A DNA stretch of 35,239 bases, from positions 1-35,239 of IMG/VR virus record IMGVR_UViG_2718218139_000010. One strand, 5' to 3'. The position numbers were made by a program. Each line of letters starts with the position of its first letter. Within the stretch, counting starts at the first letter, position 1. Below, piece after piece: positions 9,001 to 12,000 of this stretch. The stretch comes from a virus. Its lineage: Duplodnaviria; Heunggongvirae; Uroviricota; Caudoviricetes.

Positions 9001-12000
9001 CGGGTCTCCCGATCGCGACCAGTCACGTACATCCCCAGCAGATCATCCAGCCCTCCGCCGTCAATCCCCACCGTCACCACATCAGCACGCTGCAGAATAT
9101 CGTCCAGACTGATGCGCCTGCCCTACTGCTCCCAGAAATCCGCCCCTGCCCAGCGGTCAGAACGCAGGGCAAGACCAATTTCCACATTGGCGTGTTTTGA
9201 CATGAAACCGCGGAAAGTCTCTTCCCCGGCTTCCCGGGCTTTACGATACTCCCGGTACAGAAAGGCCTCATCCACCGAATAACCGAGATTCGGGTTAACC
9301 ATGGCGAGGTTTTCCATCAGCAGGTGCTCACCGCTCTCCACCATTTCAGGAGGATGCTCAAAAATCACCGGCAGAAAATGCGGATCATGAATTTTACCGT
9401 CGCGCACATCCCGGGCGTACTGCAGTTTCTGCCTGAACACCCCGGCAGGCGGCTCATTTGACTGGGTGGTTGTGTACACCACAAACCCTTCCGGACGTGA
9501 AGCCAGCCCGCCAATGGCTTCACGTAACATGTCCTCCGCCTTGTACTGCTTGCCAAACAGCCACAGTTCATCAATCAGCGTCCCCACGGACTTAATACCG
9601 GACACCGTATTCGGATCGGCTGCCACCACCTTCAGGGTGGTGTCCGTCACCCTGTGGGTGATGGTCCGGATATGTGTCTGCACCTGACAGAGGTCATCCA
9701 GATCATCGTCCCGTCGTACCATATCCCTGGCAGGGTTGAAGGCGTTGGCTGCCACCTCCACTGTCGGGGCCAGAATCGTGTAACCCGCCGCCTGCCGCCA
9801 GTTCAGTAACAGTGCAGTCATCATGATCCCCGCGGCCAGCGTGGACTTCGAGTTTTTCTTGGGGATAAGGATAAACACTTCCTTGATATGGCGAACACCG
9901 GTCTGCGCATCGTAGGAGCCAAACAGGGCCGCCACCAGGTCAAACACCCACGGTGCACAGGACTCCCCGAATGTCGGGCTACCCGGTGCATCCACAATTC
10001 GCAGTTGTTTAAAAATCGCCAGTGCATGTGCAGCCTGGTCCGGATAAATCGGAGCCGGAATAATCGACAGCCCCTTTTTCAGGCGCTCTGCCCAGTCCGG
10101 ACATGCCGTGCTCCATACAGGTATCATCCGCTTTCCTCATTCTGGTTATTCACCACCAGTCGGGGAGGTGGTGGCACCGCAAAACGGTTAGCCGCTTTTT
10201 TCGCGGCATCACCTTTTGCCGATTTTTTACCGGCATCGCCTTTTTTATGGTGTGTGAACTGCGCCAGTCGCCAGGCCGCATCCAGTGCCAGTTTCGGGTC
10301 AATTATCAGGTTTTCCACCAGGATCTGCCCCATAGCTTTCACCGGATCGGGAAGACCATCCTCCATATATTCAATACCATGAGATATCACCGCGGGCGGA
10401 GGCATCTCCGGATTGTTTTCGTCCGGCTGTGGTATTGCAGCCACCTCACGGCGACGGGGTTTATCCTCCTGCTCTGATTTTTTCTGCCGGTAAACAGGAA
10501 CCTCATCCACCTCCACCGTTTCGCACTGTTTACGGGCTATAAACGCGAGCACCTCCGGATCTTTTGCCAGCTGCGAGCCTTTAACCCTGGCGGTCTTCGC
10601 CGAATAACCGGCGGCAATGGCTGACGCTGTTTTGTTTTTCCCGGACATGAGCGCCAGCGCAAATTTTCGTTTTTGCGTTGTCAGCACAGCCTCCTCCCGG
10701 GTCCATAACGCACTCAGCCGGGTATGGTTCAGCCCATTTTTCCCGGCGTCTCATGCCGCAAATGTTAACTGCTGCCTGGTTAACATTTGCTGAAAAAGCC
10801 AGTTAACATTTTTTTCGCACAACAAACTGAATAATAAAGATAAAAACCGCAAAAATGCCCGGGCAGCCAGTTAACATGTTAACTGGCCTGAAACAGGAAT
10901 TTTTTCTCTGCATGAGACGGGGGGCGGTGTCCGGGGCGATCGTTTTTTTCGCCGGATGATCCCCCCCCGGGGCGGGTCACAGTCCGATGATATCGTCTGC
11001 CCTGCCATGACCTCCGGACACCTCCGGCAGCGTCGGGTCCGGCATACCACTCGCCGTTTCACTGACTGACTTCTGGCGATGGCATTCGGTACAGAGCGTC
11101 CAGAGATTCGTCTCCTCATTACCACCACCGAACTGAAGTGCAATTCGGTGATCGAGTTCACTGTCACAGAGGTCAACCACACGACCACAGAGACAGCACT
11201 GCCCGGCATCCCTGAGCCAGATACGGCGCTTGAGGGAAACCCGGGCACTACCACTGACCCGACGCTGTTCACCCTTCAGGACATTCACCCGCCGGGTGTT
11301 CAGAGTTTTGATTCTGCCCGGTAACGTACGAAGCACAGCCATGTAAAATCCTCGCCATATAACTTGTCACCAGAGGAAAGAAAATGTCATCGAAAAACCG
11401 GACCCGCAGAACAACAACCCGCAACATCCGATTTCCAAACCAGATGATTGAACAAATTAACATCGCTCTTGACCAGAAAGGTTCAGAAAATTTTTCTGCG
11501 TGGGTCATTGAATCTTGCCGCCGGGAGCTGGCAGCAGACATAAAATATGCCCGTCAGTTGACTATAAAAAAGAATGATACACAGTATACTCTGCGATGGC
11601 TGTTCATATAACTATTTCTTTATATTGCTGAATTTATAAAAAATCACAGACATTAGCTGTATTAATTCCGAATTGAAATAATCAGCCATATAGAATAAAA
11701 ATAAAGCATAACAATAATAATCTTCTACCCAATCAGTACATTACTGCTGTGACTCCAACACGGCAGTTTTTTTATTGAACAGATTCCAGTTTCTTCCACC
11801 ATCGCACCGGATGGGCGACCATGAGGGGAGAACGCCGCGCTCCGTTTACGCGGTAAACCCCGGTGTGTATCGTTTTTGATTATCCCCGCACACTCTCGCA
11901 GAGGAGTCTCCCTGTCGGGCTGCGGTCTCTGTTAATGCAGGAATACGGCGACAATACCGCGCATGGATAATAAGGTCGCTCAACACACTGGCTGTAATTC

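Follow-up and report, generated by a model that had tools for sequence, protein, structure and literature searches.

A ylcI/ynfO-family gene with an AT-rich tail module beside a widely shared GC-rich block in a defective lambdoid prophage, and a predicted cohesive-end site between its HNH and terminase genes

The ylcI/ynfO family (DUF3950) is represented in Escherichia coli K-12 by ylcI of the DLP12 prophage and ynfO of the Qin prophage, each of which is the final gene ahead of the packaging module and lies antisense to the late genes, ylcI being divergent from nohD and ynfO from nohA (both Nu1-like packaging genes). On the packaging side, HK97 and SfV provide the closest precedents: in HK97 a distance of 319 bp separates the end of the HNH endonuclease gene gp74 from the right genome end, and the gene of the terminase small subunit (TerS, gp1) starts at base 50, whereas in SfV the HNH gene (orf53) comes last, stopping 58 bp short of the genome end, with TerS starting at base 68. 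Here, we describe a locus in which a ylcI/ynfO-family gene adjoins the HNH gene of an HK97-type packaging module. It lies in the IMG/VR virus record IMGVR_UViG_2718218139_000010 (Duplodnaviria; Heunggongvirae; Uroviricota; Caudoviricetes), positions 1 to 35,239 of which were analysed and are referred to as the window, and it is the right-end accessory region of a defective lambdoid prophage resembling Shiga toxin (Stx) phages. The explanation that best accounts for the locus as a whole, to which we assign a probability of about 0.7, is that ylcI is followed by an AT-rich module with a terminator and then by a separate GC-rich block, and that the cohesive-end site (cos) lies between the HNH gene and TerS. 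The elements concerned are as follows.

11384-11611, plus strand: ylcI/ynfO-family gene (DUF3950), 75 amino acids, ATG start, antisense to the phage late operon
11384-11524, plus strand: conserved N-terminal module, amino acids 1-47, whose DNA is 86-87% identical to lambda, DLP12 ylcI, Qin ynfO and ev243
11525-11784, plus strand: AT-rich module (31.9% GC) with the variant YlcI tail (amino acids 48-75), the 3' untranslated region (3' UTR) and the terminator; three sequence variants
11785-11969: conserved non-coding block of lambdoid phages, about 180 bp, with sharp borders
10885-10975, minus strand (the phage strand): predicted cos region with HK97/SfV-like motifs

The 75-amino-acid open reading frame (ORF) had been described in a first-pass annotation as an orphan gene with a core resembling a ribbon-helix-helix (RHH) fold, divergent from the HNH gene, and its extent and orientation are exactly as given there, with 41 bp separating the two start codons. 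The protein matches Pfam DUF3950 (PF13132; E=3e-17, 62.6 bits against a cut-off of 25), NCBIfam YlcI_YnfO_N (NF041551; E=5e-10, 39.3 bits against a cut-off of 30) and PHROG 949 (E=7e-33), and has 725 homologs in a large protein database. Between the orthologs of lambda and of one further locus (L094), for example, 17 nucleotide differences are synonymous against 5 others, and the mainly synonymous differences between orthologs indicate purifying selection on the protein. Taken together, the family matches, the number of homologs and the mostly synonymous differences show that the ORF is a real gene and not a chance one. The columns R-N-I-R-F-P ... N-F-S-A-W-V-I-E-x-C that form the family core are invariant in the alignments and are present here. 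The gene is thus an ordinary copy of the already known YlcI/YnfO family, which is annotated in thousands of E. coli prophages. Many Stx2c, Stx2a and Stx1a converting phages, along with E. coli prophages, share with the window a 1.7-kb region around the gene (10600-12300) at an identity of at least 99%, and in near-identical loci the RefSeq order is lysis protein, hypothetical protein, YlcI/YnfO family protein, HNH endonuclease and terminase small subunit.

Comparison with the orthologs revealed where this copy departs from its relatives. The first 50 amino acids of K-12 YlcI and YnfO are near-invariant relative to the window protein, with overall identities of 69% and 64%, respectively, and the DNA homology to the lambda, DLP12, Qin and ev243 orthologs runs from the ATG only as far as 11524. 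Because this homology spans only that interval, the prophage studied here must have exchanged the sequence upstream of the gene as well as its final 28 codons: the C-terminal 28 amino acids and the 3' region, unlike those of K-12 YlcI and YnfO, belong to the AT-rich module, and the upstream neighbour is the HNH gene of an HK97-type packaging module, whereas the K-12 relatives adjoin lambda-type cos/Nu1. The position beside the packaging genes and opposite to the late operon is shared by the window, DLP12, Qin, ev243 and lambda itself, and also by many Stx phages; the family is always transcribed in this opposite direction. In lambda, a 64-amino-acid YlcI/YnfO ortholog lies on the complementary strand at 48109-48303 of NC_001416 (2710-2904 on the minus strand of locus L008), about 200 bp from cos, and carries no annotation in the RefSeq record. 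The gene also resembles phage morons of the type described by Hendrix, such as bor and lom of lambda, which are likewise small genes at module boundaries transcribed independently of the late operon; it shares with them an intrinsic terminator of its own and a deviant base composition, and its own transcription runs against the late operon. It differs from them in that no convincing promoter was found for it in the window, so that its expression from the prophage is putative.

With regard to the function of the protein, RHH proteins offer the nearest model. Members of the RHH superfamily are obligate dimers that insert a two-stranded sheet into the major groove of DNA, and the beta-strand of the fold cannot form without a partner chain. 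Arc and Mnt of phage P22 and CopG-family RHH proteins (such as StnY, PDB 9kkd, and Arc, PDB 1par) are similar in size to YlcI, and both Arc (N-L-R-W-P) and YlcI (N-I-R-F-P) place a comparable motif after a basic N-terminal arm, followed by a helix, a G-rich turn and a second helix; in YlcI, the full pattern comprises the basic arm, N-I-R-F-P, a helix, a G-S-x-N turn and F-S-A-W-V-I-E-x-C-R-R. The second helix is predicted to be much longer in YlcI (residues 37-74) than in Arc/CopG. An AlphaFold monomer model based on a 24-sequence alignment (mean predicted local distance difference test score, pLDDT, 73) has residues 1-18 extended and helices at 19-32 and 37-74, and the list of its top Foldseek neighbours consists mostly of RHH proteins (StnY of the CopG family, NikA, NikR, Arc, MazE9, VapB, TacA and ParD). 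The family profile found the same CopG-family protein, StnY, as its best match in the PDB, in register, and alignment to Arc with hhalign paired the expected residues. Foldseek, profile, hhalign and model thus agree on register and topology, each of them weakly. It is therefore plausible that YlcI is an Arc/CopG-like RHH DNA-binding protein.

Several observations weigh against this assignment and against a regulatory role. The best Foldseek match in the PDB has E=0.64 and none is significant, the best profile match has E=0.2 and is likewise not significant, the hhalign probability for Arc is 5%, and the beta-ribbon is beyond what a monomer AlphaFold model can show. A search of the sequence upstream of ylcI in the window gave no sigma-70-like promoter, and the literature on YlcI, YnfO and DUF3950 yielded no functional study. 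In addition, the RHH families of Pfam gave no match to YlcI at E<=10, and a sequence search of PDB chains found no relative. The RHH-like core proposed in the first-pass annotation is thus plausible, the top structural and profile matches being RHH proteins, without being significant in any comparison. If the fold is as proposed, YlcI would be a small RHH protein with a basic N-terminal arm, a beta-strand (NIRFP) and two helices, and may, as a dimer, regulate transcription of a moron-type cassette that the prophage expresses, rather than act as an antitoxin.

The word orphan, used of the gene at the outset, holds insofar as no toxin gene accompanies it in the window, and it carries an implication of antitoxin ancestry that the relatives do not bear out. 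A type II toxin-antitoxin pair that has lost its toxin would fit a small RHH-like protein whose 3' end has been replaced in this prophage, and RHH antitoxins (MazE9, VapB, TacA, ParD and KacA) are among the best structural neighbours. However, no toxin neighbour was seen in the window, its relatives, or the ev243, DLP12 and Qin contexts examined, nor any toxin-like downstream gene in any family member examined; the sole recurrent same-strand neighbour of ylcI is DUF1398 (ydfO/ybcV), PADLOC returned no hits, and the plus strand between the ylcI stop and the terminator holds no ORF of 30 amino acids or more. The N-terminal 50 amino acids, moreover, are near-invariant and under purifying selection in hundreds of loci that have no toxin. 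As no partner was found in the window or its relatives, the antitoxin reading is not supported, and we regard it as very unlikely.

Downstream of ylcI, the non-coding tract reported as about 370 bp measures 368 bp (11612-11979) and contains only short unconserved ORFs. Its described change from AT-rich to GC-rich sequence is borne out as well, since 11612-11784 contains 28.3% GC and 11785-11969 contains 57.3%, as compared to 48.8% in the window, and the low-GC stretch already starts inside the ylcI ORF, at about 11525. In all close relatives, the AT-rich module that begins there has an identity of at least 99%, and two further variants, at 77%, occur after ylcI in prophages whose TerS is of another type. 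Because those variants have different DNA after the terminator, the AT-rich module is a unit separate from the GC-rich block. It contains the following features.

11673-11702, plus strand: weak sigma-70-like promoter match (TTGAAA-18-AAAAAT) within the conserved TTCCGAATTGAAAT
11714-11730, plus strand: invariant 17-mer ATAATAATCTTCTACCC, common to all AT-module variants
11743-11775, plus strand: intrinsic terminator with a 9-bp stem, a 7-nt loop and a T7 run

The terminator folds with a minimum free energy of -12.7 kcal/mol (z=-3.0), and its stem is kept in the other variants. One stem pair changes from G-U to A-U between variants, a change that is allowed only on the plus strand, which fits a terminator RNA on that strand; as the other strand lacks a T-run, the terminator is unidirectional. 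In this prophage, the AT-rich module has taken the place of the usual tail of ylcI and supplies a new C-terminus, a 3' UTR and a plus-strand Rho-independent terminator; according to the explanation favoured here, the latter would halt antisense ylcI transcription before it reaches the lysis genes.

The plain reading of the 17-mer and terminator region is that it represents the 3' UTR and terminator of ylcI. A different possibility is that the AT-rich tract is an independent gene for an Hfq-type small RNA (sRNA) of about 65 nt, extending from about 11709 to the terminator and using the 17-mer as seed. The promoter-like site at 11673-11702 could serve as a possible internal promoter of such a short RNA; the 17-mer and the terminator stem are invariant between variants that are only 77% identical overall; a stable terminator hairpin follows an unstructured AU-rich stretch; and in one locus (L180) the homology to the AT-rich module begins exactly at the 17-mer, behind unrelated DNA. 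On the other hand, the -10 element of the putative promoter is poor, the candidate has no Rfam match and is neither PasA-D nor Esr41, and a conserved terminator with its 3' UTR accounts for the same pattern. On sequence grounds we consider an independent sRNA gene rather unlikely. Within the preferred interpretation as a 3' UTR, the last ~65 nt (17-mer plus terminator) could nevertheless accumulate as a small RNA, with the 17-mer as a candidate seed or single-stranded region. The tract has no Rfam match at gathering thresholds in a search of the whole window, and a search of 10600-12300 at E<=10 gave only spurious matches with E>=0.95. Among the known prophage sRNAs of enterohaemorrhagic and enteropathogenic E. 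coli (EHEC/EPEC), the PasB, PasC and PasD probes have no match in the window, and Esr41, which is in Rfam, gave none. Outside the tract, positions 15661-15685, near the lysis/sialate-esterase region, are an exact complement of the Northern probe for the EPEC sRNA PasA (EcOnc51/52 homologs).

The GC-rich block that follows is found in hundreds of lambdoid phages at 76-100% identity. Its neighbours vary widely and include lambda-type cos/YlcI (ev243), a 933W-type terminase (Stx2 II), a P22-like TerS (Salmonella phage 29485) and others, and a diverged copy is present in lambda and DLP12, flanked by bor and the DUF1398 gene (in lambda at 46885-46986, about 1.5 kb from cos). In 120 of the 156 block loci in which the position relative to ylcI could be evaluated, the block is preceded by ylcI in the same orientation. 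The structural features of the block are given below.

11785-11789/11807-11811: P1 hairpin with a conserved 17-nt loop
11825-11828/11858-11861: GGGG/CCCC stem, which encloses a variable hairpin
11834-11839/11849-11854: variable-sequence hairpin, with at least five unrelated sequences at the same place
11941-11961: direct repeats AATACGGCGAC/AATACCGCGC, 11-bp period

P1 occurs in the versions TCCGG/CCGGA, TCCTG/CAGGA and TCTCGA/TCGAGA, and the stem around the variable hairpin takes the general form GGG(G)/CCC(C). The 3' end of the block carries two direct repeats of GATACNGCGAC with an 11-bp period, and in a single locus (L124) the 11-bp unit GATACGGCGAC stands three times in tandem instead of twice, showing that the repeat number varies. 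Block types differ in length in one segment (28, 31, 32 and 34 nt) and by a deletion of 9 nt at another place; as these insertions and deletions are not all multiples of three, the block is non-coding. ORFs annotated over it, namely C87 of Stx2 II ('Rz-like spanin') and CDS0021 of IdasGreatGrand, are not conserved and have their frame broken by such changes. A role as a general promoter or leader of bor was considered and rejected, because most copies have no adjacent bor, and the literature on borD and PhoP offered nothing informative for the block. In one IMG/VR contig (L107) the block copy is interrupted at the variable hairpin by an IS629/IS3-like element. A scan of genome contigs for further copies was dominated, outside Escherichia, by what is evidently contamination with lambda control DNA (contigs of about 3.5 kb and about 48.5 kb, in assemblies of Pseudomonas, Kitasatospora, Cohnella, Flavobacterium and others; L009-L042), and for this reason it added no diversity.

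The block could be a cis-regulatory RNA or DNA element. In alignment A2, 88.9% of the cells in the proposed helices are paired and 8 pairs have changed on both sides; none of 500 shuffles reaches the observed pair counts, and slid controls are far lower. Three points count against a structured element: the helices were derived from the same sequences that were used to test them, compared with shuffled sequence, the block shows no gain in folding stability on either strand (z=+0.3 and -0.5), and the wobble (G-U) evidence for its strand is contradictory. An alternative is that the block is a neutral linker, kept as a recombination site at which lambdoid phages swap lysis and packaging modules. 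The sharp mosaic boundaries on both sides, with at least five right-hand flanks and several packaging types, would be expected in that case, as would an identity between types (76-84%) resembling that of neighbouring genes and a folding energy no better than that of shuffled sequence. Such a linker explains less readily the compensatory changes in P1, the retention of a hairpin at one place with at least five unrelated sequences, and the persistence of the block in Salmonella phage 29485. We consider the linker reading quite conceivable, if somewhat doubtful. In the interpretation adopted here, the block is a separate non-coding module shared by many lambdoid phages, in most cases found immediately after ylcI in the same orientation.

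The first-pass annotation had also suggested that cos could lie in the tract downstream of ylcI, and specifically in its GC-rich end. This idea draws on the location of the tract between the lysis and terminase genes and on the GC-rich composition of the block, and in lambda-type relatives such as ev243 no more than about 390 bp lie between the block and the genome end. The distribution of the block speaks otherwise: because it also occurs with different packaging genes, including those of phages with unrelated 933W-like and P22-like terminases, and because the lambda copy lies about 1.5 kb from cos, the block is not cos. The tract (11612-11980) is separated from TerS by ylcI and the HNH gene, and its comparison with the lambda, HK97 and SfV cos regions returned only chance-level matches of 7-10 nt, with none above chance in the block. 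In HK97 and SfV, cos is found downstream of HNH, and a better candidate exists in the corresponding place here (10885-10975). A cos within the tract is therefore hardly credible, and this part of the earlier proposal is not supported.

The precedent for the alternative location comes from HK97 and SfV/SfI. Cleavage at cos is stimulated by gp74 in HK97, where the binding site of TerS is 15-29 bp beyond the cut (PMC11331095, PMC9410871), and HNH genes are widely found beside cos and terminase (PMC3592412). The HK97 cut is made at ATGACCGCCGCC, 42 nt after a G9ATCA motif; the 10-nt cohesive end of SfI, which is related to SfV, is TGCCCGCCCC (PMC3636060), and in SfV this sequence follows CCGGAC (CCGGAC-TGCCCGCCCC). 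The corresponding motifs of the window are listed here.

10957-10968, minus strand: G8-ATCA (GGGGGGGGATCA on the phage strand)
10919-10928, minus strand: predicted cohesive-end core, the GC-rich 10-mer ACCGCCCCCC, preceded by CCGGAC and followed by an A6 run
10760-10887, both orientations: five copies of CAGTTAACAT(T/G)T, GTTAAC-containing, on the stretch from the predicted cos core to the start of TerS

On the basis of position, conservation and motifs, we predict that cos occupies about 10915-10968, in the spacer that separates the HNH gene from TerS. On the phage strand, 26 nt separate G8-ATCA from CCGGAC, after which a GC-rich 10-mer follows as in SfV. G8ATCA matches HK97 in 12 of 12 positions, which only 4 of 2000 shuffles reached. 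Over the non-coding stretch 10870-10972, DNA identity to the complete HNH-TerS spacer of Salmonella phage FSL SP-016 reaches 79-82%, although the TerS proteins of the two are only 47% identical, and the element is thus more strongly conserved than the adjoining gene. The locus thus resembles HK97 and SfV in the order of HNH, non-coding element and TerS, in the upstream G-run followed by (A)TCA and in the A/T run after the core, and a cohesive-end site cut within 10919-10928 would correspond to theirs. It differs from both in the longer spacing between cos and TerS (about 230 bp), which is filled with the GTTAAC-containing repeats. These include a perfect 22-bp palindrome at 10866-10887 and are candidate TerS-binding (cosB-like) sites. 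Against the prediction, BLAST of HK97 cos with the HNH-TerS spacer gave no significant alignment, only the short G8ATCA motif, and the overall similarity of the predicted region to HK97 or SfV cos is not significant, which leaves position, conservation and short motifs as its basis. In PPompW-type prophages, homology to the window stops at about 10965, within the G-run, and the IS110-family element ISEc20 is annotated there.

The late genes of the prophage lie on the minus strand, and those that flank the locus are as follows.

12201-12719, late (minus-strand) operon: Rz
11980-12204, minus strand: 74-amino-acid ORF at the end of the lysis cassette, partial PHROG 2571 match
10977-11342, minus strand: HNH endonuclease gene of the type that accompanies HK97-type terminases, packaging module
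10124-10687, minus strand: TerS, Terminase_2 family
8466-10127, late (minus-strand) operon: terminase large subunit (TerL)

The PHROG 2571 match of the 74-amino-acid ORF spans only positions 101-172 of 291, indicating that this ORF is a fragment of a larger family. TerL has a premature TAG at 9123-9125, where an intact relative has CAG (Gln), which turns a 553-amino-acid protein into ORFs of 334 and 204 amino acids. The endolysin gene is in two pieces (14602-14793 and 12993-13328), with an IS3-family insertion element between them at about 13.3-14.6 kb (orfA/orfB at 13405-14561). The TerL stop codon and the split endolysin show that the prophage is defective. Elsewhere in the window, Rfam matches above the gathering score were obtained for AgvB (17840-17901, plus strand), STnc100 (17902-18095, minus strand) and DicF (29411-29462, plus strand).

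DUF3950 was also found outside free-standing YlcI proteins. In five protein clusters (P0199, P0219, P0220, P0222 and P0221), it is fused to the N-terminal DNA-binding domain of TerS (Terminase_2), the N-terminus of the P0221 fusion being more divergent and RHH-like. The fusions are encoded between integrase and primase in small satellite-like elements, and the satellite-like element in locus L171 adjoins an HNH-TerS pair. Two examples, whose TerS part is close to the window TerS, are given here.

4714-5103 of locus L170: DUF3950-TerS fusion protein
6001-6429 of locus L171: DUF3950-TerS fusion protein (the fusions measure 123-142 amino acids)

Their existence shows that DUF3950 is a portable module, and their domain composition hints at a link to packaging-site recognition. 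A more far-reaching proposal is that YlcI and the block together constitute a regulatory cassette not described before, in lambda as well as in other lambdoid phages, in which an RHH protein would act on a structured element with 11-bp-period repeats, and that DUF3950 may be tied to packaging-site recognition, blocking or redirecting the recognition of helper cos. We regard this as speculative and distinctly unlikely.

The significance of these results is chiefly corrective, in that the 75-amino-acid gene belongs to a known, uncharacterised family and the locus is neither the remnant of a new toxin-antitoxin system nor a new kind of cos. Three leads arise from it, namely the unannotated YlcI ortholog of lambda, the ylcI-linked hairpin block of about 180 bp and the possible terminator-proximal RNA of about 65 nt. 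If the DUF3950-TerS fusions are relevant, they could bear on satellite interference with helper-phage packaging. A cos between the HNH gene and TerS, as predicted here, would matter for defining the ends of the Stx1, Stx2c and Stx2a phages that carry this packaging module.

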